Under the pieces are notes generated by a model, which worked only from the letters and a program-made list of their open reading frames with translations, searched no databases and had not been told where the DNA came from. This document shows, piece by piece, positions 13,031 through 63,883 of a stretch of 64,000 bases of DNA. The stretch is from Blastocatellia bacterium (lineage in GTDB: Bacteria > Acidobacteriota > Blastocatellia > RBC074): contig JBBQVH010000012.1 in NCBI GenBank assembly GCA_038211695.1, forward strand, positions 22,479 through 86,478, given 5' to 3'. Numbering within the stretch: the first letter of the stretch is position 1; every line of letters starts with the position of its first letter. Position numbers and translations under genes: made by a program.

Positions 13031-13372
13031 GACTTACTCACGATTTTAGATTTCTTTTGGAAACTTTTCAGATGCGACTTATTGATGAAAACTAGGCAAA
13101 GGCATATTAAGTCCCGTCATCATTGCTGGTCAAACCCGTATCTAAGCTAGATCGAACGTTCCCGTGTAGAAAGTTTCGGATCATAGCCGCGGCCACTCTT
13201 CCATCCTTAAAACAGGAGTCGCTGCGATACAAACCGGGTTCAAGAATCTATATAAACAAACATACAAAGCTGGCTTTGCTGGGATCAATTTTTAGCGTCA
13301 ATGGCTTCTACAAAACCTCTTGTAGGAGGGTTGTTGGCCTATCCGTTACTTTGCGTTGAGCAAGGAGATCCC

Positions 13373-17104: not shown

Positions 17105-17131
17105 GGTTTGCGGCCTCACCCGGAAAGTAGC

Positions 17132-17193: not shown

Positions 17194-17218
17194 CTTATTT
17201 CAATCAGATCATCTCAAA

Positions 17219-17992
17219 ATGAAAAAGCTACTTCTGGCGATTGTCGTGATGACGGTGTTTATTATTCCGGTCAGCGGCATTGCCTTAACAGCAGTAGAAG
17301 ACGGTTGGGTGTCGTTGTTCAATGGCCGTAACCTTGATGGCTGGTACACGTTCCTGCCCTCCACCGGAAAGAGCAAAGATTCCCACGGTGTATTCAAAGT
17401 CGAAAAAGGAATGATCCACATCCTGGACATCCCGGTGACGGCGGAAAAGCAGGAGTTTGGCTATCTGGCCACCGAAAAAGAGTTCTCCCATTGCCGCATC
17501 CGCGCCGAATTCAAATGGGGTGTTAAACGCTTCCCGCCGCATCAGGAAGACAAACGAGACAGTGGATTGCTCTATTACTTCACCGGCCCCGACAAGATTT
17601 GGCCTCGCGCGCTGGAATGCCAGATTCAGGAGACAGACGTAGGAGACCTATGGATATTGGATGGAATCACCATCACTACAAACGTCGAGACCGATCGTTA
17701 CCCGATGTATTCTCTTCCGAGGTCGGTGCCTCGCACACAGAACAGAGGTCGCATCATCAAATCCGGAGACTTCGAAGATCGCAGCGGGTGGAATACCGTC
17801 GAAGTCATTCTTGACGGCGACCGCGTTACGCATCTGGTCAATGGCCGGGCTGTTCTACGAGCTTGGGAATTGAAACAACCCGATCCTCAAGATTCAACCA
17901 AAACCATTCCGCTTGATCGTGGCCGGCTGATGCTGCAAGCGGAGGGAGCCGAAATCTGGTTCCGCAATGTGCAGATGAAACCGCTGCGATAA
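17219..17992 (+). CDS. DUF1080 family protein (3-keto-disaccharide hydrolase-like, LamG/GH16-like fold), secreted
   Basis: 257 aa with a signal peptide. DGWVSLFNGRNLDGWYTF...GVFKVEKGMIHIL... is the hallmark DUF1080 N-terminal motif. The C-terminal WFRNVQMKPL follows the family pattern. Confidence 0.65.
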   Translation: MKKLLLAIVVMTVFIIPVSGIALTAVEDGWVSLFNGRNLDGWYTFLPSTGKSKDSHGVFKVEKGMIHILDIPVTAEKQEFGYLATEKEFSHCRIRAEFKWGVKRFPPHQEDKRDSGLLYYFTGPDKIWPRALECQIQETDVGDLWILDGITITTNVETDRYPMYSLPRSVPRTQNRGRIIKSGDFEDRSGWNTVEVILDGDRVTHLVNGRAVLRAWELKQPDPQDSTKTIPLDRGRLMLQAEGAEIWFRNVQMKPLR

Positions 17993-18016
17993 GTTCATTC
18001 CCGTGGGAGACATCGC

Positions 18017-18868
18017 TTGAGATTTCGCACTCTACTTATCACTGTTTGTCTGTTGTCCTTTCCATTCCTTTCTTCCGTCAGCGGCAAGCCTCAAAAGGTT
18101 AAGGTTGGTTATTGCGGAGCATTGAAAGAGATGGACGCGACCAAAGCGGCTGCGTTCGATTACATGGAGATTCGGACTTCTGAAGTCGCGGCGTTGTCGG
18201 ATGAAGATTATGAAAAGCTGGTGACAAAAGTACGGCAGATCGGAATTTCGGTGCCGGTCGGATACTGGTTTGTTCCCGCCAACATCAAGCTGACGGGGCC
18301 TCACACAGACAAAGAGCAGCAGATGAATTACCTCCGGAAAGCACTTGATCGCGTCTCGAAATTGGGCGTCCGGCTGATTGTTTTCGGCAGCGGCGATGCC
18401 CGCAGAGTTCCCGAAGGGTTTCCTCAAAAAGAGGCATTTCAGCAGTTGGTCGAGTTCTGCCAGCGCGTCGGGCCGCTGGCCGCTGCCAGCAACATCACGA
18501 TTGCGATTGAGGCCCAGCGCCGCCAGGAATGCAACATCATCAACACCGCGGCGGAAGGGCTGGAGTTGGTCAACGCCGTCAATCATCCAAACATTCAACT
18601 AATGATTGACTTCTATCACTTTGCCATCGAAAAGGAAGACCCGGCGATTATTCTGAAGGCAAAAGATCATATCCGGCATCTGCATATGGCCAACCCTACA
18701 GGCCGCGTTTTTCCACTGAATGCGCAAGAATATGACTATGCGCCTTTCTTCAGGAACTTGCGCAAGATCGGCTATGACGGACGAATCAGTCTGGAAGCTC
18801 GCGCCTCGGACTTCGCCAAAGACTCGCCGCAAGCCATTGCCTTTTTGCGCGGCGCTTTTACCCAATAA
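18017..18868 (+). CDS. Sugar phosphate isomerase/epimerase (xylose-isomerase-like TIM barrel) with signal peptide
   Basis: 283 aa. N-terminal signal peptide. TIM-barrel AP-endonuclease-2-like motifs include LIVFGSG, IAIEAQRRQECNIINT and MIDFYHF. Confidence 0.75.
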   Translation: MRFRTLLITVCLLSFPFLSSVSGKPQKVKVGYCGALKEMDATKAAAFDYMEIRTSEVAALSDEDYEKLVTKVRQIGISVPVGYWFVPANIKLTGPHTDKEQQMNYLRKALDRVSKLGVRLIVFGSGDARRVPEGFPQKEAFQQLVEFCQRVGPLAAASNITIAIEAQRRQECNIINTAAEGLELVNAVNHPNIQLMIDFYHFAIEKEDPAIILKAKDHIRHLHMANPTGRVFPLNAQEYDYAPFFRNLRKIGYDGRISLEARASDFAKDSPQAIAFLRGAFTQ

Positions 18869-19000
18869 GGTGGTGCGCGGACAAGGATGCCCGCTTCGAT
18901 TGCGACGTGAAGAACTTGTAGGCAGGACATAAACAATCCCCCGCTGGCGATTGGGATTGAACCGAATGGTAGTTATATCTAAACAAAATGGAGGTTTGTG

Positions 19001-22000
19001 ATGAATAGAAAATCCGCGAATGCATTTTTATGTTTGTTATTGGCGGGAGCCTTCGCCTTGCTCGCCGCGCCGCGTGCGCTGGCACAGATCGGCGGGACGG
19101 GTTCGATTCAGGGAGTCGTGGCCGATGCGACGGGCGCGGTGATTCCCGGCGCGACTGTGATCGCGACCAGCCTGGCCACCGGCGTCAAGACCACACGCCA
19201 GACAACGGGGGCGGGCTTGTACGTGCTCGCGCCGCTGCCGCCGGGCGAATACAAAGTTTCAGTCTCAGCCTCGGGCTTTCGACAGCTTGAACAGGAAGGC
19301 GTAATTGTGGATGCGCTCGGCACGGTCGGTCTGAATCTGACTTTGCAGGCTGGGGCGGCGAGCGAAACGGTGACGGTGACATCGGCACCCGCGCAGTTGA
19401 ACACTTCCGACGCGCGGCTCGGCACCACGATCCGAAACGAGTTGTACACGAATTTGCCGCTGGCGATGGGCACCGCCGTCGCTGGCTCCGGCATTGGCCA
19501 AGGCCCCAGAAATCCTGGCGCTTTCATTTTCTTATTGCCCGGCGTCTCGGAAGGGAATCGCTGGGGAACCGTCAATGGCGCTCAAGGCTTTTCCAAGGAT
19601 GTGTTCATCGAAGGCGTCCCGATCACTGACCCGATTCAGCAAGGTGAGGGGCGCACGATCAGTCTCGGCGTTTCGGTCGAAGCCGTCGAGCAGTTCCAGG
19701 TGGAAACCAGCGGCACCGGGGTCGAGTTTAACGGACAAGGTTCGGAGAACTACACGATCAAATCCGGGACAAACAAATTTCACGGATCGGGGTTCGAGTA
19801 CCTGCGAAATACCGTGTTGGACGCCAGGGGCTTCTTCCCGGCCATTCGTCCGGTCGAACATCAAAACGAATTCGGTTTCACCGTCGGCGGCCCGGTCTTA
19901 AAGAACAAGCTTTTCTTCTTCTTTTCCTACGACGGGTGGCGTTATCGAGTGACCAGTCCCGCGCAGTTCGCGACCTTGCCGACGTTGAAAGAGAGGCTGG
20001 GAGATTTCAGCGAATTGCCGGTGGCGATTTACGACCCGCTGACGACGGTCGCGGTCACCGGCGGCTTTGCACGAACGGCATTCCCAGGCAACATCATTCC
20101 GGCCAACCGCCTTTCAGCGATCTCGAAAGCCTATCAATCTCTGCTGCCCACGCCGACCAACTCAGCACTCCAGAACAATTACCTGGGGTCGGTTCCCGTG
20201 TCGTATGACAATAATAGCTTCAACACAAAAGTAGACTATAACCTCACGGCGAATCATCGTCTGTCAGGCCTCTACACACACGGCAAGAGAAGTCAGCCCG
20301 GGCCATACCGAGAGACCAGTTCCGCTACGCCTCAGACTGCTCTCCCCCTGCCATACACTGAGACGCGGTTGGTGGCTGAAATCCCGACGGTGGTGCAGGC
20401 GAAGCACAACTGGACCATCAGTTCCAATCTGATCAACCAACTCAGCTTCGGCTTCAACCACTTCTTCGTACCCATCACAAACGCCACCTCGGACGGGAAG
20501 TGGTCAACCAAGTCCGGCCTCAAAGGTTTACCCGCGGGTGATGCCAGCGATGCTTTTCTGGAAGCGGCTTTCGCCGGTGCCAACGCTCCTTCGGGCTGGC
20601 GCGGCACGGGTTCCAGGGACTTCGAAGACAACAATTACAACTACACCCTGCAAGACAGCTTGTTGTGGGTGAAGAATAAGCATTCGTTCAAATTCGGCTT
20701 TCAATACCAACGGACGGCGGATCACACCAAAACCAACGACACCGGAAGCCTGCTGACGACCAGCTTCAGCAATTTACAGACTGCTGGCTTCAACGCCACG
20801 GGCGGACTGCTCAGCGCTACCGGTAACGCTTATGCCAGTTATTTGCTGGGCGCGCTGAATGGAGCGACCGTCAACGAGGATTCGATTGTCCTGACCATCT
20901 CACAGTTCAGCGGTTATTCTTGGTGGGCGGCTGACGACTACAAGGTGAATTCGCGCCTGACCGTCAATCTGGGTCTGCGCCACGACATCATGCTGCCTTA
21001 CACGGAAGCGGGCGATCACTTTACTTATCTTGATCCGCTCGCTCCGAACCCCGCGGCTGGCGGGCGTCCGGGAGCCTTGCGCTTCGGCGGTACTTCCGCG
21101 CCGGATGCCATTAGCTGTCATTGCGGCCAGATCATCAACACGTATTACAAAGCCTTTGGCCCACGCCTCGGATTCGCTTACAGCCTTAACGACAAGACGG
21201 TACTGCGCGGCGGTTACGGGATGATGTACTCGCGCAGTGGTGCGGTCGGAGGCCGGGACGGCGCGCGCATCGGCACGGGCTTGACCGGAATTAACGCCAA
21301 CGCGCCAATCGTCAGTCCGAACGGCTCATTCACCCCGGCTCTGTTCTGGGAAAGCGGCATCCCGGCTTATGCCAAAGGGCCGATCTATGACCAGACCTAT
21401 CAGACCGGCTTCAACGGGACTGGGTCGGGCGGCACCGTGACCTATGGCGATCCTTACAGCCAGCCGCCGCGCTATCAAAATTGGAACCTTTCGGTGCAAC
21501 GCTCGCTCACACAGTCGTTGGTTGTGACCGCGGCTTATGTGGGAAGCAATGGCAAACAACTGCGCGGAGGCGGTCGCAGCACGTGGTCAAATCAGATTGA
21601 TCCCAAGTTTTTGGTGTTGGGGAATCTGCTGACCCAAACTGCGACTCCGGCCAACATTACAGCAGCCGCAGCAATTGTGCCGGGCGTCAGCCTGCCGTTC
21701 CCCACTTTTGCTGGAACAATCGCTCAGGCTCTGCGCCCATTCCCGCAATACAATGGCGTCACCGATGTTTACGGCGATGTTGGGCAATCGAACTACAACG
21801 CGCTGCAGGCCTCCGTCCAGCACCGCCTTTCACACGGTTTCACCTTCAACCTGAACTACACGTTCAGCAAAGCGCTTGGCACCATCAACGGAAATCGCAG
21901 CGCGTATATTCAGGAGAAGAACCTTTCCACGACGGATCAGCCTCACCTGGTAAACGCGTTCTATTCGTACCAACTGCCGTTCGGAAAGGGTCAATCGCTC

Positions 22001-22492
22001 GACCCTGGAAACAAGGTTGCGCGGGCCTTCGTCGGTGGCTGGCAGATTTCCGGCATCACGCGGTTCGCCACGGGCACGCCGCTTGGGCCGTTCACTGCTA
22101 CCTGCAACGTACCTCAAGCTGGTACCTGCTGGGCCAGTAAAAATCCGGCCTTTACCGGATCGGCTGCGCTCAAAGGAGACGGAGGAACCACGCCCTTTAT
22201 TGACGTGAATGCCTTCATCTCGCCGGCTTCGTTCACCTACGGCAACACGCAGGCGACGGGGACTTACGGGCTGCGCAACCCGCACTTCTTCAATCAGGAT
22301 TTGAGCCTTTCCCGGAATTTTCAAATCCGCGAAAGTTTGCGGTTTGTGTTCGGGGCCGACGCGTTCAACCTCTTCAACAATGTTCGCTTCGGCAGCATCA
22401 ATACCAACATTACGAATGCTAACTTCGGCAAGGCTGCCGCCCAGGCCAATTTGCCGCGTGTCTTTCAGTTTAAGCTGAGAGTCGAATTCTGA
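19001..22492 (+). CDS. TonB-dependent receptor (CarboxypepD_reg + plug + barrel)
   Basis: GGAGG lies 6 nt upstream of the ATG at 19001; the track begins at an in-frame GTG at 18998. Signal peptide MNRKSANAFLCLLLAGAFALLAAPRALAQ. IQGVVADATGAVIPGATV is the regulatory domain. GNIIPANRL is present. The protein ends ...KLRVEF. Confidence 0.8.
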   Translation: MNRKSANAFLCLLLAGAFALLAAPRALAQIGGTGSIQGVVADATGAVIPGATVIATSLATGVKTTRQTTGAGLYVLAPLPPGEYKVSVSASGFRQLEQEGVIVDALGTVGLNLTLQAGAASETVTVTSAPAQLNTSDARLGTTIRNELYTNLPLAMGTAVAGSGIGQGPRNPGAFIFLLPGVSEGNRWGTVNGAQGFSKDVFIEGVPITDPIQQGEGRTISLGVSVEAVEQFQVETSGTGVEFNGQGSENYTIKSGTNKFHGSGFEYLRNTVLDARGFFPAIRPVEHQNEFGFTVGGPVLKNKLFFFFSYDGWRYRVTSPAQFATLPTLKERLGDFSELPVAIYDPLTTVAVTGGFARTAFPGNIIPANRLSAISKAYQSLLPTPTNSALQNNYLGSVPVSYDNNSFNTKVDYNLTANHRLSGLYTHGKRSQPGPYRETSSATPQTALPLPYTETRLVAEIPTVVQAKHNWTISSNLINQLSFGFNHFFVPITNATSDGKWSTKSGLKGLPAGDASDAFLEAAFAGANAPSGWRGTGSRDFEDNNYNYTLQDSLLWVKNKHSFKFGFQYQRTADHTKTNDTGSLLTTSFSNLQTAGFNATGGLLSATGNAYASYLLGALNGATVNEDSIVLTISQFSGYSWWAADDYKVNSRLTVNLGLRHDIMLPYTEAGDHFTYLDPLAPNPAAGGRPGALRFGGTSAPDAISCHCGQIINTYYKAFGPRLGFAYSLNDKTVLRGGYGMMYSRSGAVGGRDGARIGTGLTGINANAPIVSPNGSFTPALFWESGIPAYAKGPIYDQTYQTGFNGTGSGGTVTYGDPYSQPPRYQNWNLSVQRSLTQSLVVTAAYVGSNGKQLRGGGRSTWSNQIDPKFLVLGNLLTQTATPANITAAAAIVPGVSLPFPTFAGTIAQALRPFPQYNGVTDVYGDVGQSNYNALQASVQHRLSHGFTFNLNYTFSKALGTINGNRSAYIQEKNLSTTDQPHLVNAFYSYQLPFGKGQSLDPGNKVARAFVGGWQISGITRFATGTPLGPFTATCNVPQAGTCWASKNPAFTGSAALKGDGGTTPFIDVNAFISPASFTYGNTQATGTYGLRNPHFFNQDLSLSRNFQIRESLRFVFGADAFNLFNNVRFGSINTNITNANFGKAAAQANLPRVFQFKLRVEF

Positions 22493-24444: not shown

Positions 24445-24473
24445 TTGAAAAATCTTTGGGAGACGAGAAAGTC

Positions 24474-31995: not shown

Positions 31996-34533
31996 ATGGA
32001 ACTGAAAAGACTCATGCGACTGAATCGAATCATTGCCAAACTTGGGCTGTGTGTGCTGCTGATTCTCGGCACAGGTGTTGTCCGCGCAGCGGATGCCACC
32101 GTCGCGCCCAATGGCGACGGGCAATTCAAATCCATTCAGGATGCGATTATGGCCGCGCCGCAAGGCTTGCCAAGCCAAACGCGTCCGTGGGTGATTCACG
32201 TCAAACCGGGCACGTACAAAGAACTGATCTACGTCCAGCAAGAACGCCGCTTCATCCATCTGGAAGGCGAAGACGCCGCAACGACGATCATCACCTTCAA
32301 CCTGAACGCCAACTTGATCGGACTGGACGGCAAACCGATTGGTACCTTTCGCACGCCAACCGCGCAAATTGATGGCGATGGATTCGAGGCGAACAACATC
32401 ACCTTTGAAAATTCCGCCGGGCCTGTGGGGCAGGCGCTGGCGTTGCGCGTGGACGGCGACCGCGTGGCGTTTCGCAACTGCCGTTTCTTGGGCTGGCAAG
32501 ACACGATCTTTCTGAATCGCGGGCGGCAATTGTTCGAGAACTGTTACATCACGGGCCACGTGGATTTCATCTTCGGCGGGGCGACGGCGTTCTTTGATCG
32601 CTGCCACATTCACGTTCTGCGCGACGGTTACATCACTGCCGCGTCAACGCCGGAAGATCATCCGTACGGATTCATCTTTGCCGATGGCAAAATTACGGGC
32701 GAGCCGGGCGTGAAAACTTATCTGGGCCGTCCGTGGCGCAGTTTTGCGCACACTGTGTTTTTGAATACCGAGATGTCGGAAGTTGTACGGCCTGAAGGCT
32801 GGCACCACTGGACAGGGCCGGAGCGCGAGAAGACGGCGCGCTACGCCGAATTCAACAGCAAGGGGGCTGGCGCGAACGACGCCGCTCGTGTTGCTTGGGC
32901 GCGCAAACTGACTGCCGCCGATGCCCACAACCTCACCGTGGAAAAAGTTCTCGGCGACTGGAATCCAAAAGCCGCGCCGAAAGCCGAAATCGCGCCAGTC
33001 AGACGCAACCCCTACGATCACGCCTTGCTCAAGGGCCGCGTCAAGACCGACATCGAATACGCACAGGCCGGCGGCGAAAGTTTGAAGCTGGATGCTTATG
33101 TCCCCGAAGGCGTGGGGCCTTTTCCCGCAGTGATTTTCGTTCACGGTGGCGGATGGTCGGCGGGGGATAAAGTGGGTGGCAACGATCCGCTGTTTGTGCC
33201 GTTGGCCAACCGTGGCATCGCCTGGTTCACGATCAATTATCGCCTTGCGCCCAAGCATCATTACCCCGCGCCGGTCGAAGACGTTCTTACCGCTGTCGCC
33301 TGGGTCAAAGCGCACGCCAGCGAATACAACGTTGATCCGAAGCGAATCGCGCTGGTCGGTGAATCGGCGGGCGGGCAGTTGGTTGCGCAAGCCGCGATGC
33401 TGGCAAAACCAGGGGAACAAGTCGCTGCCGTCGTACCGTTTTATGCGCCTGTGGATTTCATCGCCGATATGGAGCGGCGCGGCGGATTGAGCACTTCGAT
33501 GCGCGGGTTGTTTGGACGGGCAGAGGCCAGGGCCGATGACGCCACGCTGCAAGTCTTACGCGATGCGTCGCCGCTCAACCACGTCCGCGCAGGCTTGCCG
33601 CCGTTCCTGCTGGTGCATGGCACCGGCGATATGAGCGTGCTGTACGCGTGGTCGCCGCAGTTTCAATCGAAGCTGAAAGCCGCTGGCGTCGAATGCGATC
33701 TGATCACAATTCCGGATGGCCTGCACGGAATGGCACGTTGGGAAAGTTTCGCGCCCCAATACAAAGACCAGGTTACCGACTGGCTGGCCGCGAAGCTCGG
33801 GGCGAAAAGCGCGAGGGGAAGTAATGCGCGCGTGAAGCAGCTTTTCCTGATTGGTGATTCGACGATGGCAGACAAACCGCTCAACGATAATCCCGAACGT
33901 GGCTGGGGGCAGTTGCTGCCCGCGTTTTTCGGTGAAAGCCTGACGATCAAAAACCACGCGATGAATGGCCGCAGCACAAAGAGCTTCATTGACGAAGGGC
34001 GCTGGGATGCCGTGCTCAAACAATTGCGCGCAGGCGATTGGGTTTTTATCCAGTTCGGCCACAACGACGAAAAGAAAGAAGACCCGACCCGTTATGCCGC
34101 ACCGCACGAGGCTTACCGCAAGAATCTGACACGCTTTGTCGAAGAAGCCCGCAGTCGTGGCGCGCATCCTGTGTTGCTGACGCCGGTCATGCGGCGACGC
34201 TTTGACAAGGAAGGAAAGTTTTTCGACACGCACGGCGAATACCCTGATGCCGTGCGCACGCTGGCGAAGGAATTGAACGTGCCGCTGATTGACCTGCACA
34301 AATCCACGCAAGGCTTGATCGAACGGCACGGCGCAGAAGGCTCAAAGAAATTATTCCTGTGGATCAAACCGGGTGAATACAAATCTCTGCCCGAAGGCCG
34401 CCAGGACGATACGCATTTTTCTGAATACGGCGCGCGCGAAGTTGCCGCGCTGGTGGTGGCGAACGTTCGCAAATTGAACCTGGAACTGACTAGATTTCTA
34501 AAACTGGCGGAAACCAACGGTGGGGAAAAATGA
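31996..34533 (+). CDS. Trifunctional pectin esterase: CE8 pectin methylesterase + alpha/beta-hydrolase acetylesterase + SGNH/GDSL (CE12-like rhamnogalacturonan acetylesterase)
   Basis: 845 aa with a signal peptide. The CE8 motifs are [43 protein letters not shown] and [19 protein letters not shown]. The middle domain carries an HGGGW oxyanion motif and a GESAGG nucleophile elbow. The C-terminal region carries [11 protein letters not shown], GWGQ and FIQFGHNDE (SGNH blocks I-III), plus a DTHFSEYG block V. Confidence 0.75.
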   Translation: [845 protein letters not shown]

Positions 34534-35978
34534 ATCAACACAAGTATCCGTATTCTCGGCGCTGTCTTTTTGTTGCGCTTGTTTGCGCGCTGCTGCTGAT
34601 TCGCGGCAACGGCCTGCAAGCGCAGTCAAAAAATGCAGGCAAAGCAAATAGCATTGGCAGCTCCGGCAACACAGGCTGGTCGCAGGTTCCGGCAATCCTG
34701 GCGCGCATCAAAGCGCCTACATTTGCGAATCGCGATTTCGAGATCACGAAGTTTGGCGCAGTTGCCGACACCAAGACTGACAACACCGAAGCAATTCGCA
34801 AAGCGATTGAAGCCTGCAACAAAGCAGGCGGCGGGCGTGTGGTTGTGGCGGGCGGCGTGTTCCTGACCGGGGCAATCCGTCTGCGCAGCAACGTCAATCT
34901 GCACATCGCCGAAGGCGCGACGCTGAAGTTCATTCCCGATCCGGCGAAATACCTGCCGGTGGTGCTGACGCGGTTTGAAGGCACCGAATGCATGAATTTC
35001 TCGCCGCCGATTTACGCCTTTGAGCAGGAGAATCTGGCGATTACGGGCAAGGGCACGCTGGATGGCTCAGCATCGGCGGAGAATTGGTGGGCGTGGAAGC
35101 GGACGGGCAGTGAAGACGTGCGCCGTCTGCTGGAATTCAATGACAAGGGGACGCCGGTTGCCGAACGCATCTTTGGCGAAGGCCACAAACTGCGGGTCAA
35201 TTTCATTCAACCATATCGCAGTCGCAACATCCTGATCGAAGGCGTAACCATCAATAATTCGCCGATGTGGGAGGTTAATCCCGTACTCTGCACAAACGTG
35301 ACGGTACGTGGTCTCACCATCGTCAGCCACGGGCCGAACAACGACGGCTGCGACCCCGAGTCTTGTAAAGACGTGCTGATCGAAGATTGCGTCTTTGACA
35401 CGGGCGACGATTGCATCGCCATCAAATCAGGTCGCAACGACGACGGGCGGCGCATCGGCGTGCCTTCTGAAAATATCGTCGTCCGCAACTCGACGATGAA
35501 AGACGGCCACGGTGGTGTGGTTATGGGCAGCGAGATTTCGGGTGGCGTGCGCAATGTCTTCGTCGAAAACTGCAAGATGGACAGCCCGAACCTTGACCGC
35601 GCGCTGCGCTTCAAATCGAACGCCAAGCGCGGCGGCGTGATCGAAAATATCTTTATGCGCAACGTCCAGATTGGCCGCGTCAGCGAAGCCATCCTGACGA
35701 TTGATTTCCTGTACGAAACCGGCGCGATGGGCGAACACAAACCCATCGTGCGCAATATCCAGATTGAAAATGTAACCAGTGCTTCCAGCCCGCGTGTGAT
35801 GTGGATTGGGAGCTTTGCGGGAGCGATTGCTGATGACATTCGCTTTATTGATTGCACCTTTCGCGGAGTTGAATCAACTGAACAGATTCAGCACGCTGGC
35901 TCCATCTCATTCAAAAACGTAACCATCGAAGCGGCCAAAAAAGGCCGCAGCAAAAATTCACCCGAGGCTAAACCATAA
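34530..35978 (+). CDS. GH28 polygalacturonase / exo-poly-alpha-galacturonosidase (right-handed beta-helix)
   Basis: 482 aa with a signal peptide. The GH28 signature is NDGCDPESCKDVLIEDCVFDTGDDCIAIKSGR, plus HGGVVMGSE and RFKSN. The start ATG overlaps the upstream stop (ATGA at 34530), which suggests translational coupling. Confidence 0.8.
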   Translation: MNQHKYPYSRRCLFVALVCALLLIRGNGLQAQSKNAGKANSIGSSGNTGWSQVPAILARIKAPTFANRDFEITKFGAVADTKTDNTEAIRKAIEACNKAGGGRVVVAGGVFLTGAIRLRSNVNLHIAEGATLKFIPDPAKYLPVVLTRFEGTECMNFSPPIYAFEQENLAITGKGTLDGSASAENWWAWKRTGSEDVRRLLEFNDKGTPVAERIFGEGHKLRVNFIQPYRSRNILIEGVTINNSPMWEVNPVLCTNVTVRGLTIVSHGPNNDGCDPESCKDVLIEDCVFDTGDDCIAIKSGRNDDGRRIGVPSENIVVRNSTMKDGHGGVVMGSEISGGVRNVFVENCKMDSPNLDRALRFKSNAKRGGVIENIFMRNVQIGRVSEAILTIDFLYETGAMGEHKPIVRNIQIENVTSASSPRVMWIGSFAGAIADDIRFIDCTFRGVESTEQIQHAGSISFKNVTIEAAKKGRSKNSPEAKP

Positions 35979-36102: not shown

Positions 36103-39100
36103 ATGAATCAGAGAGTAAAACAATCTTATTGGCGCGTCGCGCTCCTTCTGCTGTTATCCGCCATAACAGCCGGCGCGCAGGAGTTTCGTGGTTCACTGAC
36201 CGGCAGAGTCACTGATCCGACGGGCGCGGCATTGCCGGGCGCGGCGGTCAGCCTAAGAAATGTAGACACCAACGTGACCGCCAACGCCACAACCAACGAA
36301 GACGGCAGCTACAGCTTCCCGCTGATCGCGCCAGGCAAATACGCACTGACCGTTACGCAGCAGGGATTCAAGCGGGCGCAGCGCGAAACGATTGAAATTC
36401 GCGTGGCCGACCGTCTGACTGTGGACGTGCCGTTGGAAATCGGCGCGGCCACTGAAGCCGTTACCATCACCAGCGACGGGCCTGCATTGGAAACCAATTC
36501 GGTTTCGACTGGTACGGTTGTTACAGGTGAACAGATCAGCGAATTGCCCTTGACCGAAGGCACGGCGTACCAGTTGGCCACGCTGGCGCCAGGCGTCGCG
36601 TACACTGGCAATCCCGCGTTCAGCGGCCCGACCTCGAATGGAAATCTGGCAGCGTTCCGGTCAAATGGCGCAACGGGGCGCAATCAAATCACGCTGGACG
36701 GCACGCCGAACTATGCGTTTGACGGCGGTGTGGGCTTTTCTCCGCCCGCCGACGCGGTGCAGGAATTCAAAGTTCAGACGAATCTGTTCGACGCGCAGCA
36801 GGGATATTCCGCTGGCGGCACGGTCAACGTTGCAGTCAAAAGCGGGACCAATTCTTTGCGCGGCACGCTGTGGTATTTCAACCGTGACCGCAGCCGCACG
36901 GCAAATAACTTCTTTTCAAATCGCACGGGCCAGGATCGTCCCGAACGCACCTATCACCGCTATGGCGGCGTGGTCAGCGGGCCAATCTGGTTGCCGAAGA
37001 ATGTCTTCGGGCCAGCCGCTTACGACGGACGGAACAAAACCTTCTTCCTGTTTTCGTATGAAAAGCTGAAAGACAGCATCGCGGAGCCGCAACTGTTCAC
37101 CGTGCCGACGGCGAAAATGCGGCGTGGCGACTTTTCAGACTTTCTGACGCTTTCAGCGCCGACCTTGATTTATGACCCGGCAACGGCGGTGACCAGCGGC
37201 AGCAACGTCGTGCGCACGGCGTTTGCGGGCAACATCATTCCAACCGCGCGGCTGAATCCGGTGGCGCTGGCTTATCTGAGCTATTACCCGCAGCCGAACA
37301 CCGCAGGCAATGTGGATGGCACGAACAACTATTTCTCAAACCAAATCCGGCGGCAGAACTATCGCGGCTATCTGGGCCGGATTGATCACAAGATCAGCGA
37401 GAAGCAAACCATCTTCGGCAAGTATTTCCACAGCTTCAACCCCGAAGACCGCTACGATTGGGCTGGTATTCAGAACAATTACCCGGTCACCAGCGGCTTT
37501 GAATTTCGCACCAACGACGGCGGCAATGTGGATTACACAATCACGATCACGCCGACGACCGTGTTGGATTTGCGTGTGAACTTCAACCGGTTTGCGCAGC
37601 AACGCAGTCCGGCACAGCCTTTCGATCCGGCGCAATTGGGCTTTACGCCGCAGACATTGGCCACGATGCGCGGGTTTCAATACCTGCCACGATTCGACAT
37701 CAGAACCTACGATGCCACGCGGCCCGTCCGGTCAACGCTGGGATCAAACCGGTCGGATTACAACGCCGGATTGCTGCGCCCCTTTATGATGGGGTCCTTC
37801 CAGTCCACGCTGACCCGGATTTTCGGCAATCATTCAACCAAAGCGGGCTATGACGCGCGCGTGCTGCGCGAAAACCTGACGACCAGCGGCTATCAGGGCG
37901 GACGCTTCTTTTTTGACGGCACCTACACGGCTCCGGCGTCGAACTCATCCACGGCGCTGCGGCAGTTGTATGGGCGCGATGTGGCGGCCTTTCTGCTTGG
38001 GATTCCGACGGCTTCGACTTCGCAAAGCCTGATTGATAATCCGAACAGCTACTCCGTCCAGTCTGTCTATCACGGATTCTTTTTCCACGACGATTGGCGC
38101 GTGTCGTCGAAGCTGACGCTGAATTTGGGATTGCGGTACGAACTGGAACTGGGCCTGACCGAACGTTACAACCGCATTGTGCGCGGCATTGATCTGACAA
38201 CAGTCAGCCCGATTCAAACGGCGGCACAGGCGGCGTACACAACTGCCTACAATGCCAGCCCCGCGAACTTCCCGCTGACACCTGATAAGTTCCGTGTGCT
38301 GGGCGGCGTTACGTATGCCGGTGACAGCAGCAGGGCGATTGCGGATGCGGACAAGAGCAACTGGCAACCGCGTATCGGCGCGGCGTACAGGCTGACGCAG
38401 AAAACGGTTGTGCGCGCGGGCTTCGGCATTTTCATGGCGCCGTTTATGGTCGAAACGCCCAATCAGGTGGGCTTTTCCGGCAATACGCCTTTCGTGGCTT
38501 CGAACAACAACGGGTTGAATTTTGTTGGCACGCTCAACAATCCCTTCCCGAATGGACTGCAACCGACGCTGGGCAACAGCCTGGGGTTGCTGACGCGCGT
38601 GGGACAGGATTTGGGGTCATCGGATGCGCCGATTTTTCCGGTGGATCGCAGGAATGCGAAGTTCAGACGACTGATTTTCGGCGTGCAGCGCGAATTGCCA
38701 GGGCAGTTCGTGGTTGAAGCCAACTACGTCACCGCCTGGGGCTACGATCTTGGTGTCAGCCGGAATTTGAACTTTGTCCCGCGTTCGTATCTGGGAACTG
38801 ATCCAACGACCGACACGGCGGCGAACACCTTTCTGGCAACGACGATCACCAATCCGTTCCGCAACCTGTTGCCCGTCGGCGGCAGCCCCTTCAACACGGC
38901 ATCAACCATCACGCGGGCACAATCGCTGCTGGCCTTTCCGCAATTTACGAATGCCTGGGTGCAGCAATACAACGGCACGAACCGTTACAACTCGCTTCAG
39001 CTTCAGGCGCAGAAGCGACTGTCAAAATCTCTGACCTTCACCGGGACGTATACCTATTCGCATCTGCGCGAAAAGGTCAGCTATCTGAACGCTTCGGACG

Positions 39101-39678
39101 CTGAACCGGAAGATCGTATTTCGCCGGACGACCGTCCGCACCGGTACACTTTTTCTGGCGTGTATCTGCTGCCGGTGGGGCGTGGCCGCAAACTCGGCGC
39201 GAACTGGAATCGCGCTGCGGACGCCGTCATTGGAGGCTGGCAGCTCAACGGCACCTACGAATGGCAGAAGGGCGAACCGTTCCTGCTCAGCAATCCGCTG
39301 TATTTCGCGGGCGACGTGACGCAGTTGAAAAGCCGCGTCGGGCAGAAGAACGACAGCGGGCAAACCTACGGCATTGATGTTTCGGCGTTTGATGCAGGGT
39401 TGGTCCGGCTCTCTGCTTTTGGGTATCGCAACGTTCCCTCGACGCTGGATAACCTGCGCAACCAGGCCTACCTGAACGTCAATCTGTCACTGTCGAAAAA
39501 CTTCAATCTGGGCGAACGGCGGCGTTTGCAGATTCGCGGCGAATTCCTGAATGCCTTTAACCATCCTTACTTTGGTTCCGGCATCAACCTTGATCCAAGC
39601 AACGCGGCCTTCGGGTTCGTGACCACGCAACGCAACAACCCGCGCGACGTTCAGCTTGGCGCGAAGTTCACTTTCTGA
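36103..39678 (+). CDS. TonB-dependent receptor (CarboxypepD_reg + plug + barrel)
   Basis: 1191 aa. Signal peptide [48 protein letters not shown] is the regulatory domain. [11 protein letters not shown] is present. The terminus is ...GAKFTF. Confidence 0.8.
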
Positions 39679-39695: not shown

Positions 39696-41426
39696 ATGCA
39701 GAGCACGATTGAAAAGAAAACGTATGACGCGATTGTTGTCGGTTCCGGCGCGGCGGGCGGCGTGGCCGCGCTGGTGCTGGTCAACAAAGGCTTGAATGTG
39801 TTGATGCTGGAGCTTGGGCCGAAGCTGAATCCGGCGACGGACTACCCAACTTCGCATAAATGGCCTTACGAAATGCCGTATCGCGGCCTGGGCAAGCCGG
39901 GTCAGTATGACGGATTGTGGAAAGTTGACGCCTACACCGAACATCTTTTCCTGAATCCGAAAATTGACCGGTACGCGACCGCGCCGGGCACTGACTTTCA
40001 TTGGACGCGCGTTCACGCGGTTGGCGGACGAACGTTGACCTGGGGGCGCGTGTCCTTGCGGTTTTCGCCATCCGACTTCAAGCCGAAATCGAAACAGGAC
40101 GGCGTGGGCGAAGACTGGCCGATTGAATACAAGGACGTAGCGCCGTACTACGACAAAGCCGAAACGCTGATGGGCGTGTTCGGCACGCGCGAAGGATTGC
40201 CGAATCTGCCCGATGGCATCTATCTGCCGCCACCCGCCATGCGCTGCGGCGAAACGATGCTGAAGCGGGGCTGCGACAAATTGGGCATTCCGGCGATTCC
40301 GAATCGCAAGGCTGTCTATACCCAAAATTACGACGGACATTCGGCCTGTCATTATTGCGGCGAATGCACGCGTGGCTGCGAAACCGGATCGCGGTTTTCA
40401 ACGCTCGAAGCGATCATTCCCAAACTGGCGGGCCGCGACAATTTCACGCTGCGCACGCACGCGGCGGCTCACCGCGTGATTGTTGATCCGAAGACGAACC
40501 GCGTGCGCGGCGTGTCTTTTATTGACACCGAAACCCGGCAGGAACACGAAGTCTATGGCAAAACAGTTGTGCTGGGCGCGGGCGCAATGGAATCCACGCG
40601 CATCCTGCTGAATTCCAAAACGCGTGAGCATTCAAATGGACTGGCAAATTCTTCCGGCGTCCTCGGCCATTACCTGATGGATAGCATCAAATCCGGCTTT
40701 ATCAGCGGCGCGCTGCCCGTGCTGAAAGGCGCGAAGGTCAGCAACGATGATGGCGCCGGAGGCGGACACCTGCTCATTCCGCGCTTCACCAATCTTCCGG
40801 GCGGGCGCAAATCAGCGGCGCTGCGCGGCTGGCAGACTCAGCCCAACAGCGGCGCGCGCATCTTTCCCGGTTATGCAAAGGGGCAGAACGGATTCGGCTC
40901 CGGCTTCAAAACGCAGGTGCGCGAACAGAATCCGGCGATGGTGACGATGGGCGGGTTTGGTGAATCGCTGCCGGACTTTACCAATTACTGCGAGATTGAT
41001 CCGAATGGCCCGGGTGTTGCCGGAATGCCAGGTGTTGCTGGAATGAAGGATCGCTATGGCATTCCACAACTACGCTTCCACGCCAAATGGGGCGACAACG
41101 ATTTGAAGATGGCGGCGCTGATGTATGACGCGGCGGAAGAAATGCTGCACGCGGCAGGCGCTGAGGTTCTGCCTTATCAACGTCGCACGCCCGCGCCAAT
41201 GGGCGATTCCACGCACGAAGTCGGCACGGCGCGGATGGGCAACGATCCGAAAACTTCCGTGCTGAACCAATGGTGTCAGGCCCACGAATTCAAAAACTTG
41301 TTTGTCACCGATGGCGCGTCGTTTGTGTCTGCAACGGAAAAGAACTGCACGTTGACGATTATGGCGCTGGCTTGGCGCGCCTGTGATTATCTGGCGGAAG
41401 AATTGCGGGCAGGGAATTTGACTTAA
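39696..41426 (+). CDS. GMC-family FAD-dependent oxidoreductase
   Basis: The N-terminus [33 protein letters not shown] is a Rossmann FAD-binding GxGxxG motif. The C-terminal GMC region is [37 protein letters not shown]. An in-frame GTG at 39681 overlaps the receptor stop (39676-39678), so the two genes are probably co-transcribed. Confidence 0.8.
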
Positions 41427-41460
41427 TACTGACCGCCGCAAGTCCTTTGAGGTGCGCGAT

Positions 41461-41656
41461 GCCTCTTCGCCGCGCTAGCGGCGGTTGACTTTAGCCAGGC
41501 GTTTCAACGCCTGGAAGGTTGCAAATAAACTCCGCGTCGCGTTAGCGACGCCTGAATTCAAGCGTCGCTAACGCGACGCAATTATTTCTCTCTCGCGTCC
41601 CGTGGGCTTCACCCACGGCTAAAGTCAGCCGCCGCTAGCGTGGCGAAGAAGAGGCA
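41461..41656. repeat. ~196 bp nested-hairpin element with ~36 bp terminal inverted repeats (MITE/REP-like)
   Basis: The outer arms are 'gcctcttcgccgcgctagcggcggttgactttagcc' (41461-41496) and 'ggctaaagtcagccgccgctagcgtggcgaagaagaggc' (41618-41656). Inner hairpins are 'caggcgtttcaacgcctgg', 'gcgtcgcgttagcgacgc…gcgtcgctaacgcgacgc' and 'ccgtgggcttcacccacgg'. A related partial copy lies at 63895 onward. Confidence 0.5.
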
Positions 41657-41702: not shown

Positions 41703-42860
41703 ATGCATCGTTCTGGTGGAAAAGAAAGATCAATGCAGAAGATGGCACATTGGGCGCGACTGATGGCCCTTGGGCTTTTGCTCTTTGCCGGTGGCGTCTT
41801 CGCCCAAACTGCAAGGCCCAATGCTATTGCATGGAAAGATTGCCTGGACCAGAAGCCCGATTGGTACTCGAGCGCCGAAGCGGTGCGCATCGCGGACAAC
41901 CTGCTGAATTTTCAGCGCGAGATTGGCGGTTGGCAGAAAAACGTGGATATGGCCCGACGTTTAACCGAAGGCGAAAAGGCCGACGCGGTTGATTCGAAAG
42001 AACAGAACGATTCGACGATTGATAACGATGCGACCTACGCGCAGATGGTTTATCTGGCGCGAGTCTTCAATGCGACAGGGGCGACGCATCAGGAGCGCTA
42101 CAAAACAGCGTTTCTGAAAGGGTTGGATTACCTGCTGAAGATGCAATACGCCAACGGCGGCTGGCCGCAGTATTACCCGCGACTGACCGGCTATTACACG
42201 CACATCACGTTCAATGATGACGCGATGATTAACGTCATGACATTGCTGCGCGAGATCGCGCAAAAGCAATCTGTCTATAGCTTCGTAGACGAAGCTTGGC
42301 GAGCGAAGGCCGATCGCGCCGAGCAGAAGGGCATCGAATGCATCCTGAAGTGCCAGATCAAGGTCAACGGCAAACTGACTGCCTGGTGCGCGCAGCACGA
42401 TGAAGTGACGTTTGCGCCCGCGCCCGCCCGCGCTTACGAAAAGATTTCGATTAGCGGCGCTGAGAGCGTTGGCATCGTGCGGTTTCTGATGAGCATTGAG
42501 CATCCCAACGCGCAAGTGGCCGAAGCAATTCAGTCCGCCGTCGCGTGGTTCAATCAGGTCAAACTGACGGGCATCAAGCTGGCCAGAAAGCCGGATGCAT
42601 CAACGCCGAAAGGCTACGACACCATTGTTGTCGAAGACGCTAACGCCGCGCCGCTGTGGGCGCGCTTTTACGAGATTGGCACGAATCGCCCGATCTTCTG
42701 CGGTCGCGACAGCATCATCAAATTCTCACTGGCCGAAATCGAATACGAACGGCGCAACGGTTACAACTGGTACACCGGCGCCGCGGCCAAGTTGTTGGCG
42801 CAAGACTATCCGGCTTGGCAAAAGAGATTGGCGGCAGGAAAGAACGTGCGCGGCAAATGA
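41703..42860 (+). CDS. Putative pectate lyase, PL10-like (alpha/alpha-toroid) with signal peptide
   Basis: AGGAG lies 8 nt upstream of the ATG at 41703. Signal peptide MQKMAHWARLMALGLLLFAGGVFAQ. The helical repeat character with GGW motifs (NLLNFQREIGGWQKN, KMQYANGGWPQYYP) and the pectin-locus context suggest PL10. I could not confirm the family by motif. Confidence 0.45.
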   Translation: MHRSGGKERSMQKMAHWARLMALGLLLFAGGVFAQTARPNAIAWKDCLDQKPDWYSSAEAVRIADNLLNFQREIGGWQKNVDMARRLTEGEKADAVDSKEQNDSTIDNDATYAQMVYLARVFNATGATHQERYKTAFLKGLDYLLKMQYANGGWPQYYPRLTGYYTHITFNDDAMINVMTLLREIAQKQSVYSFVDEAWRAKADRAEQKGIECILKCQIKVNGKLTAWCAQHDEVTFAPAPARAYEKISISGAESVGIVRFLMSIEHPNAQVAEAIQSAVAWFNQVKLTGIKLARKPDASTPKGYDTIVVEDANAAPLWARFYEIGTNRPIFCGRDSIIKFSLAEIEYERRNGYNWYTGAAAKLLAQDYPAWQKRLAAGKNVRGK

Positions 42861-47832: not shown

Positions 47833-47895
47833 AACCCCAAGACAATTGGGTTGGTAAAACCATCTGAGCATCATGAAATCAGGACTGAGATAGGA

Positions 47896-50388: not shown

Positions 50389-50396
50389 AGGAGATT

Positions 50397-56263: not shown

Positions 56264-56336
56264 CGCAAAGACTTTTGCGGAGATCAATGACGCAAGCTGG
56301 GAAGCGATGCGCACGTGAGGCTGATTGGATACGGTT

Positions 56337-63093: not shown

Positions 63094-63097
63094 ATCC

Positions 63098-63883
63098 ATG
63101 AAGGCCGCTTACGGAATCGTTATTTTGATCGGCGTTGTGCTGTTATTCGGTCGTGCGCAGATTACCGAATCGTTGGCGCAGCAACCAGTGTCCACTTTGG
63201 CGGCTGCTGATGAAGCGGGCTTTGAGCGCATCTTCGACGGCAAGACGCTCAAAGGCTGGGAAGGCGATCCGAAATATTGGCGCGTCGAAAACGGCGCACT
63301 GGTCGGCGAGATCACGCCGGAAACCATCGTGAAGCAGAACACCTTCATCATCTGGCGCGGCGGCGTGACGCGCGATTTTGAATTGAAGGTGGAGTATCGC
63401 ATCTCCGCGCGCGGCAACAGCGGAATCAATTACCGCAGCACTGAGGTGGCCGGCCAGCCGCTGGCGATGCGCGGGTATCAGGCTGATATTGATGGGCAGG
63501 ATCGCAATGCAGGGAGCTTGCGCCACGCGGGGCAGAATTATGAAGAACGCGGGCGCACCTTTCTGGCGCGGCGCGGCGAGATGGTGAACATCGCAACCGG
63601 TAAGAAACCGGTTGTCACTGCTTCGCTGGGCGATCTGAAAGAGCTTGCCGCTTTCATCAAGAGTGACGATTGGAACGAATACCATCTGATTGCGCGCGGC
63701 AATTTGTTGATCCACATCTTGAACGGTCACGTGATGAGCATGGTGATAGACGACGATACTGAAAACCGCCGCTTCGACGGGCTGCTGGGCGTGCAGGTGC
63801 ATGTCGGGCCGCCAATGAAAGTTGAATATCGCAACTTCCGTTTGAAACATTTATTGCTGGAAGCTGCCAACAAGAAACCATAG
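63098..63883 (+). CDS. DUF1080 family protein (3-keto-disaccharide hydrolase-like), secreted; second copy
   Basis: 261 aa. The start is 5 nt after the upstream stop. Signal peptide [49 protein letters not shown] is the DUF1080 N-terminal motif, and [11 protein letters not shown] lies at the C-terminus. Confidence 0.65.

Follow-up and report, generated by a model that had tools for sequence, protein, structure and literature searches.

The GMC-family gene of this pectin- and rhamnogalacturonan-degrading region from a soil acidobacterium (Blastocatellia) encodes, as judged from its sequence, a sugar dehydrogenase of catalytic-subunit type from the FAD and Fe-S branch of the superfamily. A periplasmic oxidative module, into which the initial annotation had placed it, is not supported in the window (the whole 64-kb stretch of DNA analysed here), and the locus is largely ordinary. 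The explanation that we favour overall, and to which we give an even chance, is that of a dehydrogenase without adjacent partner working on the cytoplasmic side, apart from a periplasmic pair composed of a DUF1080 protein (DUF1080a) and a TIM barrel. Besides these 64 kb of the source genome, the analysis covered ±10 kb around the genes of relatives, and signal peptides were judged by inspection and hydrophobicity. All four genes of interest were confirmed. The family calls made earlier (one GMC, two DUF1080 and one xylose-isomerase-like TIM barrel) all proved right in a Pfam HMM check, and the three protein types do occur together in the window (Table 1).

Table 1. Features of the window discussed in the text
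Feature	Position	Strand	Basis and remarks
TonB-dependent receptor 1	13301..17104	+	Pfam; conserved partner of DUF1080a and TIM barrel
DUF1080a (PF06439), secreted, divergent subfamily	17219..17992	+	Pfam E 1.6e-30
Xylose-isomerase-like TIM barrel, secreted	18017..18868, TTG start	+	PF01261 E 3.7e-38
TonB-dependent receptor 2	18998..22492	+	Pfam; after TIM barrel, before PL11 and PL22-like lyases
CE8 pectinesterase/BD-FAE esterase/GDSL esterase fusion, secreted	31996..34533	+	Pfam, signal peptide; opens same-strand run closed by GMC
GH28 polygalacturonase-like, secreted	34530..35978	+	PF00295 E 3.8e-28, signal peptide
TonB-dependent receptor 4, acidobacterial (CarboxypepD_reg + OMP_b-brl_4)	36103..39678	+	Pfam E 6.6e-182; directly 5′ of GMC
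GMC flavoprotein dehydrogenase, 576 aa	39696..41426	+	Pfam, PDB sequence matches, motif conservation
Nested palindromic intergenic element	41460..41656	.	Inverted repeats, terminator-like sites, RNA fold, Rfam
PL10 pectate lyase, secreted	41733..42860	+	Pec_lyase E 1e-113, NCBIfam TIGR02474; signal peptide after internal Met
DUF1080b (PF06439), secreted, canonical type	63098..63883	+	Pfam E 6.9e-36

The GMC ORF, which begins with an ATG and has an in-frame GTG at 39681, matches both GMC_oxred_N (PF00732, E 1.3e-21) and GMC_oxred_C (PF05199, E 5.5e-22). It carries the FAD-binding motif GSGAAGG (residues 16–22), a cysteine motif C218-x2-C221-x2-C224-x3-C228 which aligns with the Cys cluster of fructose dehydrogenase and provides putative Fe-S ligands, and putative catalytic residues H507 and N550 in the C-terminal domain. 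Most of 40 aligned relatives share the Cys motif and the catalytic His and Asn. An in-frame duplication of 12 residues (41010–41045) is strain-specific and unique among the 40 homologous sequences aligned. Clade-specific indels marking a lost partner interface were also sought, and the alignment gave two 4-column gaps only, which were uninformative. In a PDB sequence search, the closest solved relatives, with full-length homology, were fructose dehydrogenase (FDH; 7w2j, E 7e-44) and FAD-glucose dehydrogenase (FAD-GDH; 6a2u, E 2e-42), both members of the FAD and Fe-S branch. Matches to choline oxidase/dehydrogenase and pyridoxine 4-oxidase were weak (about 1e-6 to 1e-7), as was the score of 86 bits with the choline dehydrogenase model of NCBIfam, for which the cutoff is 605. 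The earlier remark that glucoside 3-dehydrogenase is itself a GMC-family enzyme holds: the window protein falls in the same Fe-S flavoprotein clade as the periplasmic glycoside 3-dehydrogenases, and glucoside/lactose 3-dehydrogenase also belongs to this branch according to the literature.

In such an enzyme, the FAD would accept a hydride from a sugar carbinol with the assistance of H507 and N550, and the electrons would leave singly via the C218/C221/C224/C228 cluster towards a quinone or a cytochrome. As to the position oxidised, our own estimate puts C3 somewhat below an even chance and another position of a sugar or sugar acid slightly closer to even, a non-sugar substrate being unlikely. 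In particular, we find it very improbable that the enzyme oxidises an alcohol freed by the neighbouring esterases, such as the methanol of methyl-esterified pectin or an aryl or aliphatic alcohol. Alcohol, aryl-alcohol and PEG dehydrogenases are indeed found among GMC enzymes, and in the PEG operon of sphingomonads such an enzyme is accompanied by a TonB receptor. The run that holds the window GMC also encodes CE8, BD-FAE and GDSL esterases, and OYE-like reductases and cupins recur beside one subclade. However, the sequence is that of the Fe-S branch, the choline-type matches are weak, and the known members of this branch act on sugars, polyols or sugar acids.

No signal peptide was found on the GMC protein nor on its 18 close orthologs (67–78% identity) with readable flanks. 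Its N-terminus passes directly into the FAD fold, the DNA upstream being the end of the receptor 4 coding sequence, and the same start is used in all relatives. It is thus the sole degradative or redox enzyme of the region without an export signal, as all other degradative enzymes carry a signal peptide. A Tat ‘hitch-hiker’ small subunit (gluconate 2-dehydrogenase subunit 3 family) was searched for with an HMM derived from 12 small subunits, and no match was obtained in the window at E ≤ 10; ORF listing, HMM and motif scan revealed no hidden small subunit or Tat-type ORF near the gene. With the same HMM, the small subunit was found beside 12 GMC relatives of 27–45% identity and was absent next to the gene at all 18 close-clade loci with readable flanks. 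No cytochrome gene adjoins the GMC gene, and the only cytochrome-c-domain protein of the window, of PSCyt/DUF1592 type (47851–50388), has a different architecture.

In a neighbour-joining tree, the clade lacking the partner nests inside partner-bearing lineages. This Blastocatellia clade may be derived from enzymes dependent on the Tat ‘hitch-hiker’, of which the partner is no longer adjacent and an own signal is absent. The enzyme would most likely be located on the cytoplasmic side, with a small sugar, a glycoside or a uronate as its putative substrate, imported via the receptor and an inner-membrane transporter, and it is probably not periplasmic alongside the DUF1080 proteins and the TIM barrel. 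Several observations go against this explanation. A small subunit encoded elsewhere in the genome could act in trans, and at one Blastocatellia locus (L014) the partnerless gene does have a second, partner-bearing GMC gene at a distance of 8 kb. A periplasmic enzyme would accord better with an operon shared with a TonB receptor and with the secretion of everything else in the region, and two close orthologs (L011 and L024) have a TIM barrel with a Tat signal just upstream. Finally, no recognised inner-membrane sugar transporter is encoded in the window, where a TauE family member is the only permease-like gene.

The stop codon of receptor 4 (39676–78) precedes the GMC ATG by 17 nt on the same strand, with no terminator-like site in between, and the two genes are probably co-transcribed. 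The initial annotation had described them as translationally coupled; the tight linkage is real, but coupling is not established since the ORFs do not overlap. The GMC gene is the last of a same-strand run including the CE8 esterase, GH28 and receptor 4 genes, in which the stop of the CE8 fusion overlaps the GH28 start by 4 nt, and a strong hairpin closes the run. Inverted repeats define a hairpin with 23-bp arms (41534–41579) inside the palindromic element of Table 1, whose RNA fold reaches −138 kcal/mol (z −15.8). An Acido-Lenti-1-like motif was detected there on the minus strand (41468–41514), with an Rfam score of 32.6 bits for RF01687, below the gathering score of 37. This element ends the receptor–GMC unit, and the PL10 lyase downstream is a separate transcription unit.

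Within ±3 genes, the close GMC clade is accompanied by MFS transporters (6 cases, tied among the commonest neighbours), cupins (5), TonB receptors (4) and TIM barrels (2), in no case by DUF1080 genes, and also by OYE-like reductases. A conserved pectin context for the clade was rejected: PL10, GH28 and CE8 are not conserved neighbours, save for a weak esterase-domain similarity. Could the enzyme be a dehydrogenase of a pectin monomer or sugar acid (galacturonate, tagaturonate/fructuronate, an aldonate, rhamnose or fucose), located in the cytoplasm or at the inner-membrane face, which oxidises C1, C2 or C5 like gluconate 2-dehydrogenase, fructose 5-dehydrogenase or FAD-GDH and passes electrons to the respiratory chain? 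We regard this as rather unlikely, despite several indications. The solved relatives are a fructose and a glucose dehydrogenase, some characterised members of the branch have monosaccharides or sugar acids as substrates, MFS transporters are prominent around the clade and the window is a pectin locus. In addition, the gene of one ortholog (L006) comes last on the same strand after UxaC, UxaE, SDR, Lar_N-domain and MFS genes, which points to cytoplasmic hexuronate catabolism, and the L014 ortholog adjoins an MFS transporter, an SMP-30 lactonase and an IlvD/EDD sugar-acid dehydratase. Nevertheless, the hexuronate and the sugar-acid contexts were seen at one locus each, and a hexuronate operon as general context of the clade, found in L006 only, was rejected. 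Moreover, the L014 lactonase has a Tat-like signal; therefore, these reactions may take place in the periplasm and may be those of the second GMC present there. The nearest relatives with informative contexts point rather to glycoside-type clusters.

Indeed, among the relatives that bear a small subunit and share 36–45% identity with the window GMC, three or four loci (for example in Pseudoalteromonas, Pyrinomonas and L036) also carry DUF1080, TIM-barrel and Gfo/Idh/MocA genes, arranged on the same strand in Pseudoalteromonas as Gfo–TIM–MFS–DUF1080–GMC–small subunit–TIM. The idea of an oxidise-then-cleave module is therefore sound at the family level. Applied to the window, it would make the GMC protein a periplasmic glycoside 3-dehydrogenase with its Tat partner encoded elsewhere, oxidising imported pectic oligosaccharides at C3, while DUF1080a, DUF1080b and the TIM barrel would eliminate and hydrate the 3-keto products. 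The pathway is established elsewhere with DUF1080 proteins and a secreted ‘sugar phosphate isomerase’, relatives of 39–45% identity lie in exactly such clusters, and the two close orthologs L011 and L024 adjoin Tat-signal TIM barrels. The two DUF1080 proteins and the TIM barrel are also secreted, as previously claimed, all having n/h/c-type N-termini. Against this stand the lack of a visible export route for the GMC protein and of a small subunit in the 64 kb, as well as the position of the genes, 21–22 kb apart in different transcription units (20.8 kb to the TIM barrel, 21.7 kb to DUF1080b). No DUF1080 gene was found at the 18 close GMC loci with readable flanks and no GMC gene at any of 80 TIM-ortholog loci (489 kb). 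Neither a Gfo HMM on six frames nor Pfam on all large ORFs revealed a Gfo/Idh/MocA oxidoreductase in the window. With the features of the TIM barrel and DUF1080a described below, we consider this reading unlikely.

A periplasmic oxidise-then-cleave pathway is thus not indicated, because the GMC protein lacks an export signal and is not consistently associated with DUF1080 or TIM proteins. The GMC-centred loci (about 700 kb) contained 8 TIM barrels and 4 DUF1080 genes, and the presence of the three families within 64 kb is unremarkable. A literature search found, in the collection searched, nothing linking GMC, small subunit and DUF1080, nor G3DH and 3Fe-4S.

The TIM barrel, with 2,035 homologous proteins at E ≤ 1e-5, had been proposed as a lyase of 3-keto-glycosides. 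Its long start is supported by the conservation of G31, Y32, C33 and L36, invariant or nearly so in 35 orthologs; the public gene call P0002 (245 aa, 87% of the ORF) omits the N-terminus and hence the signal peptide. In the AF2 model (pLDDT 88.8 as a whole), residues 1–24 have a pLDDT below 50. The metal site E165/D198/H223/E260 aligns with the residues of epimerases and all four positions are invariant in the 35 orthologs; it is a Glu-Asp-His-Glu and not a His-Asp-His site. Profile matches in the PDB were to D-tagatose 3-epimerase (E 1e-20) and YcjR (7e-11), and the best 50 Foldseek matches of the model were almost all sugar 3-/4-epimerases (ketose 3-epimerases, YcjR, UlaE) or close relatives, with TM 0.69–0.82. 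No characterised 3-keto-glycoside lyase appeared in PDB sequence or profile searches at E ≤ 0.01, nor in this Foldseek top 50. From sequence and model, the protein is predicted to be a two-base metal-dependent epimerase/isomerase of the ketose-3-epimerase/YcjR type. Its closest relatives occur in pectin contexts, following a GH28 gene in L051 and between a GDSL esterase and CE8 in L043. Pectin context as a general trait of the TIM orthologs was rejected, as it does not hold across 80 metagenome loci.

The two DUF1080 proteins differ from each other with respect to the channel residues conserved in DUF1080 lyase/hydratases (E-x-Q, K, Q-x-H). DUF1080b, whose ORF spans 62915–63883 with a true start at M62 (63098), lies 5 nt downstream of a GDSL esterase stop, in the same run as a GH29 fucosidase; its Q233-x-H235 is intact, and its PDB matches include 8tda, 8v31 and 8rr2, at about 1e-6. 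DUF1080a (666 homologous proteins at E ≤ 1e-5) keeps E133-x-Q135 but has Q240-x-E242 in place of the canonical Q-x-H, and it matches the same three structures weakly, at about 1e-4 in a PDB profile search. Only 24 nt separate it from the TIM barrel gene, and TonB receptor 1, DUF1080a and the TIM barrel form a recurring unit: in about 10 other loci, receptor-1 orthologs stand next to orthologs of DUF1080a or the TIM barrel, and no adjoining oxidoreductase was seen on any of the gene maps. Receptor 2 orthologs also adjoin TIM orthologs, in L059 and L065/L066. DUF1080a and the TIM barrel probably form an accessory pair of their own in the periplasm, linked to TonB receptor 1. We see a slim chance that, in the periplasm of Blastocatellia, pectic or rhamnogalacturonan oligosaccharides undergo oxidative cleavage of 3-keto type, with the GMC enzyme, exported by a Tat partner encoded elsewhere, or an unlinked oxidoreductase making keto-sugars for processing by this unit. 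In a still more speculative variant, the double bond left by the many polysaccharide lyases of the region would replace the oxidation, DUF1080a hydrating unsaturated uronides and the two-Glu TIM barrel isomerising a keto-uronate.

If the partnerless clade works without the Tat hitch-hiker, a family of periplasmic, cytochrome-linked sugar oxidation would have been re-deployed to the cytoplasmic side in abundant soil bacteria, and GMC genes at the glycan loci of acidobacteria would have to be interpreted differently. With receptor 1, DUF1080a and the TIM barrel, there is a well-defined candidate unit for a new accessory role in the periplasm during TonB-dependent glycan uptake. The main lesson is that a pathway should not be inferred from three families, each of them common in these genomes, being found together.

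Among known systems, the large subunit of FDH (7w2j) and the alpha subunit of Burkholderia FAD-GDH (6a2u) resemble the window GMC over their full length, including the aligned Cys-rich region and the C-terminal catalytic His. They differ in Cys spacing (C-x2-C-x2-C-x3-C in the window GMC versus CC-x4-C-x3-C). FDH and FAD-GDH function in complexes that also contain a Tat small subunit and a multi-haem cytochrome c subunit, whereas the window GMC has no partner genes. G3DH of Agrobacterium and LacABC of Caulobacter belong, as placed in the literature, to the same group of FAD-dependent dehydrogenases, and the relatives of 39–45% identity have small subunit and DUF1080/TIM/Gfo neighbours as at LacABC loci, LacABC being encoded near DUF1080 genes in several lactose-utilising bacteria. 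Unlike these, the window GMC has no adjacent Tat small subunit, dedicated cytochrome c gene or signal peptide, and its clade is surrounded by MFS, cupin, OYE and TonB receptor genes and not by DUF1080.

Ketose 3-epimerases (D-tagatose, D-psicose, L-ribulose) and E. coli YcjR, a 3-keto-D-glucoside 4-epimerase, are the best sequence and fold matches to the TIM barrel (TM about 0.8) and have an identical Glu-Asp-His-Glu metal and catalytic site. The known epimerases are cytoplasmic, while the TIM barrel of the window carries a signal peptide and has a TonB receptor as its conserved partner, and identity is only 18–25%. In the systems of Alistipes (AL1-4) and B. thetaiotaomicron (BT2156-2159), DUF1080 proteins act as 3-keto-alpha-glucoside lyase/hydratase and the secreted ‘sugar phosphate isomerase’ as 3-keto-beta-glucoside lyase. 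BT2157 acts on 3-keto-trehalose. There too, a secreted DUF1080 gene adjoins a secreted TIM gene in a glycan-uptake context. However, the window has no Gfo/Idh/MocA enzyme, DUF1080a has a Glu where the canonical His sits, and the first metal ligand of the TIM barrel is E165, whereas the characterised lyases AL1/BT1, compared by description, have a His-Asp-His metal site plus a catalytic Glu (H178/D211/H237/E272 in AL1). In the window, the families are scattered over 46 kb in separate units, without small subunit, Gfo enzyme or MFS transporter. In contrast, the annotated but uncharacterised plasmid cluster D0907_RS17095-17125 of Pseudoalteromonas donghaensis, whose GMC is 39.5% identical to that of the window, is what an intact module looks like, with Gfo/Idh/MocA, TIM, MFS, DUF1080, GMC, small subunit and TIM genes.

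A Blastocatellia (Acidobacteriota) bacterium is the source of the window, a carbohydrate-utilisation region whose GMC protein has its best genomic relatives in Blastocatellia MAGs (67-78% identity). Pfam annotation of all large ORFs gave five TonB-dependent receptors of the acidobacterial type (CarboxypepD_reg + OMP_b-brl_4), the polysaccharide lyases PL11, PL10 and two PL22-like, GH28, a CE8/BD-FAE/GDSL fusion, GH43, GH29 and several esterases, with ROK, GntR and Trans_reg_C (OmpR-type) regulators. The window showed no gene of family GH105 or GH88. The GMC, TIM-barrel and two DUF1080 genes, which the initial annotation had combined into a periplasmic 3-keto-glycoside module acting on imported pectic oligosaccharides, are all real as judged by their Pfam assignments.

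Coordinates and assignments of the main features
Feature	Position	Pfam	Remarks
Receptor 1 (TonB-dependent)	13301-17104		
DUF1080a	17219-17992	PF06439	
TIM barrel	18017-18868	PF01261	TTG start
Receptor 4 (TonB-dependent)	36103-39678		
GMC oxidoreductase	39696-41426	PF00732 + PF05199	576 aa
Nested palindrome	41460-41656		~200 nt, between GMC stop and PL10 start
DUF1080b	63098-63883	PF06439	

Several other features were observed. The pectin region also holds, at 47851-51746, a PSCyt/DUF1592-DUF1588-DUF1587 protein, whose cytochrome c domain is the sole one near GMC, together with its usual DUF1552 partner (Tat-like signal); a TauE-family permease precedes the pair. Further along, at 55726-59480, an IS200-like ORF (Y1 transposase-like, judged by eye; 55726-56172) and a gene whose 1051-aa product combines WD40 repeats with a Ras-like GTPase domain (56325-59480) break the series of carbohydrate genes.

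Among solved structures, GMC comes closest to the large subunit of fructose dehydrogenase (7w2j, E 7e-44) and the alpha subunit of Burkholderia FAD-glucose dehydrogenase (6a2u, E 2e-42). For pyranose oxidases and C-glycoside 3-oxidases the similarity is confined to the C-terminal domain (1e-10 to 1e-12), and choline oxidases score about 1e-7; a non-sugar alcohol dehydrogenase is thus a highly improbable reading. C218, C224 and C228 line up with the Cys-rich segment for the Fe-S cluster in fructose dehydrogenase and, with a fourth cysteine at 221, form a C-x2-C-x2-C-x3-C motif, kept with the catalytic H507/N550 in most aligned relatives. The gene also carries a strain-specific in-frame tandem duplication of two 18-bp units (41010-41045), absent from 40/40 other aligned family sequences.

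Members of this GMC branch are known to form complexes in which they are joined by a cytochrome c acceptor and a small ‘hitch-hiker’ subunit with a Tat signal; they include glucoside 3-dehydrogenase and Caulobacter LacABC, 3-ketoglycoside dehydrogenases described as periplasmic and cytochrome-c-dependent. An HMM of 12 small subunits found partners adjoining GMC relatives of 27-45% identity. The same HMM detected none in a six-frame search of the window, even at E<=10, nor in the 18 loci of the close clade with readable flanks, and a twin-arginine motif scan gave no candidate Tat partner. In the neighbour-joining tree the partnerless clade is nested inside partner-bearing lineages, so the loss of a neighbouring partner is a derived trait. 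All other degradative enzymes of the region carry signal peptides, including both PL22-like (oligogalacturonate-lyase-like) proteins (24456-25694 and 52772-54100), whose export means that breakdown to unsaturated monomers may be periplasmic. GMC is the exception: it begins straight in the FAD fold, and the DNA just upstream is the coding end of receptor 4. With no visible export route, the periplasmic location first proposed for this enzyme is not supported.

We consider it an even bet that GMC is an FAD/Fe-S sugar dehydrogenase that has no partner, shares its transcript with a TonB receptor and acts on the cytoplasmic side after import. The imported substrate would be oxidised there, and electrons would leave via the Cys4 cluster to a membrane acceptor. 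BetA and AlkJ, signal-less membrane-associated GMC dehydrogenases, provide precedents for such a topology.

The GMC ATG lies 17 nt past the receptor 4 stop, and the run formed by the CE8 fusion, GH28, receptor 4 and GMC stops at a very stable nested palindrome, so that neither PL10 nor the DUF1080 and TIM-barrel genes share the unit of GMC. This element (outer arms of 33 nt, central hairpin with 23-bp arms; RNA fold -138 kcal/mol, z -15.8) contains on the minus strand (41468-41514) a match to the Rfam Acido-Lenti-1 sRNA motif that spans the full length but stays below threshold (32.6 bits vs gathering score 37), and its mirror arm resembles a second copy in inverted orientation. The window holds no other copy.

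Within +/-3 genes at 19 loci, neighbours of the GMC clade were MFS transporters (6), S9 peptidases (6, on the opposite strand where mapped), secreted small cupins (5), TonB receptors (4) and TIM barrels (2), with neither DUF1080 nor small subunit. In one subclade (homolog loci L002-L004, L012, L013, L015, L018) the flanking genes encode an OYE-like flavin reductase, an MFS transporter and a small secreted cupin; a TonB receptor sometimes lies ahead, itself preceded by small conserved unannotated ORFs. At locus L006 (3392-11689) the ortholog closes a run of UxaC, UxaE, SDR, Lar_N-domain protein, MFS and GMC, which looks like hexuronate catabolism, and another ortholog adjoins an MFS transporter, a lactonase and an IlvD/EDD dehydratase. 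Such surroundings point to a small sugar or sugar acid that is imported, and the MFS adjacency fits cytoplasmic use. That GMC is a monomer or sugar-acid dehydrogenase of uronate catabolism is a minority reading.

The TIM barrel and both DUF1080 proteins carry clear signal peptides, in agreement with the secretion initially proposed for them. The public gene call P0002 (245 aa, 100% identical) spans only 87% of the TIM ORF used here (18017-18130 affected), thereby leaving out the signal peptide, and also loses the first conserved beta-strand. G31, Y32, C33 and L36, which precede the internal Met chosen by P0002, vary little or not at all among 35 orthologs, and this supports the longer TTG start; like the pLDDT <50 of residues 1-24 in the predicted model, it also reinforces the signal peptide. 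By sequence, profile and fold alike, the TIM barrel is best matched by ketose 3-epimerases and YcjR (3-keto-D-glucoside 4-epimerase). Whereas the characterised lyases AL1/BT1 hold their metal by His-Asp-His, the invariant E165/D198/H223/E260 form a two-Glu epimerase site, which argues against the suggested 3-keto-glycoside lyase. Among 80 metagenomic ortholog loci (54-72% identity, 489 kb), none had GMC or a small subunit, while DUF1080 occurred in 3 and Gfo/Idh/MocA in 5. The TIM barrel is therefore neither lyase-like nor linked to GMC.

Its recurrent association is with a receptor. The acidobacterial TonB receptor was the only recurrent family among immediate neighbours of TIM orthologs (11/98), the wider surroundings being heterogeneous and without pectin-gene enrichment. 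Receptor 1 orthologs adjoin TIM orthologs at homolog loci L050 (80%), L089 (74%), L106, L119 and L088/L092, and DUF1080a orthologs at L053 (72%), L054 (60%), L056 and L088/L092, often with a second DUF1080 in tandem; no oxidoreductase lies beside the unit in these gene maps. Receptor 1, DUF1080a and the TIM barrel (13301-18868) thus seem to form a semi-conserved periplasmic accessory unit across soil Acidobacteria, in which DUF1080a/TIM could be a pair specific to one receptor type. The unit may act on keto-sugars made elsewhere, with a 3-keto-glycoside as a possible substrate in view of the resemblance of the TIM barrel to YcjR. No tie with the window GMC was found. DUF1080a, with weak profile matches only to solved DUF1080 structures and Glu242 at the position of the canonical His in the Q-x-H motif, is a divergent subfamily; DUF1080b is canonical and lies 21.7 kb from GMC, beside GH29 and GDSL genes.

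All families here and the 3-keto pathway are already known. What appears new from gene context (+/-10 kb per relative, 64 kb of this genome) is a Blastocatellia GMC clade without its defining hitch-hiker partner, and a receptor-linked DUF1080a/TIM unit without oxidoreductase. The original observation is confirmed and its interpretation partly supported: the idea is right at the family level, whereas neither the module nor its localisation is supported in the window. A periplasmic module whose partner is encoded elsewhere is accordingly improbable here, given the missing export route, the clade neighbours without DUF1080, the TIM loci without GMC, the epimerase-type site and the divergent DUF1080a, although relatives of GMC do occur in such clusters. 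In established chemistry, DUF1080 proteins act as 3-keto-alpha-glucoside lyase/hydratases, and the secreted ‘sugar phosphate isomerases’ serve as lyases of 3-keto-beta-glucosides. Pyrinomonas (45% identity) and one more acidobacterial locus have GMC and small subunit amid DUF1080, TIM-barrel and Gfo/Idh/MocA genes, with a ThuA-like gene also in the Pyrinomonas loci. Unlike the window GMC, which has no adjacent small subunit, its 39.5% identical relative on a Pseudoalteromonas plasmid sits in one same-strand cluster of Gfo/Idh/MocA, TIM, MFS, DUF1080, GMC, small subunit and TIM.
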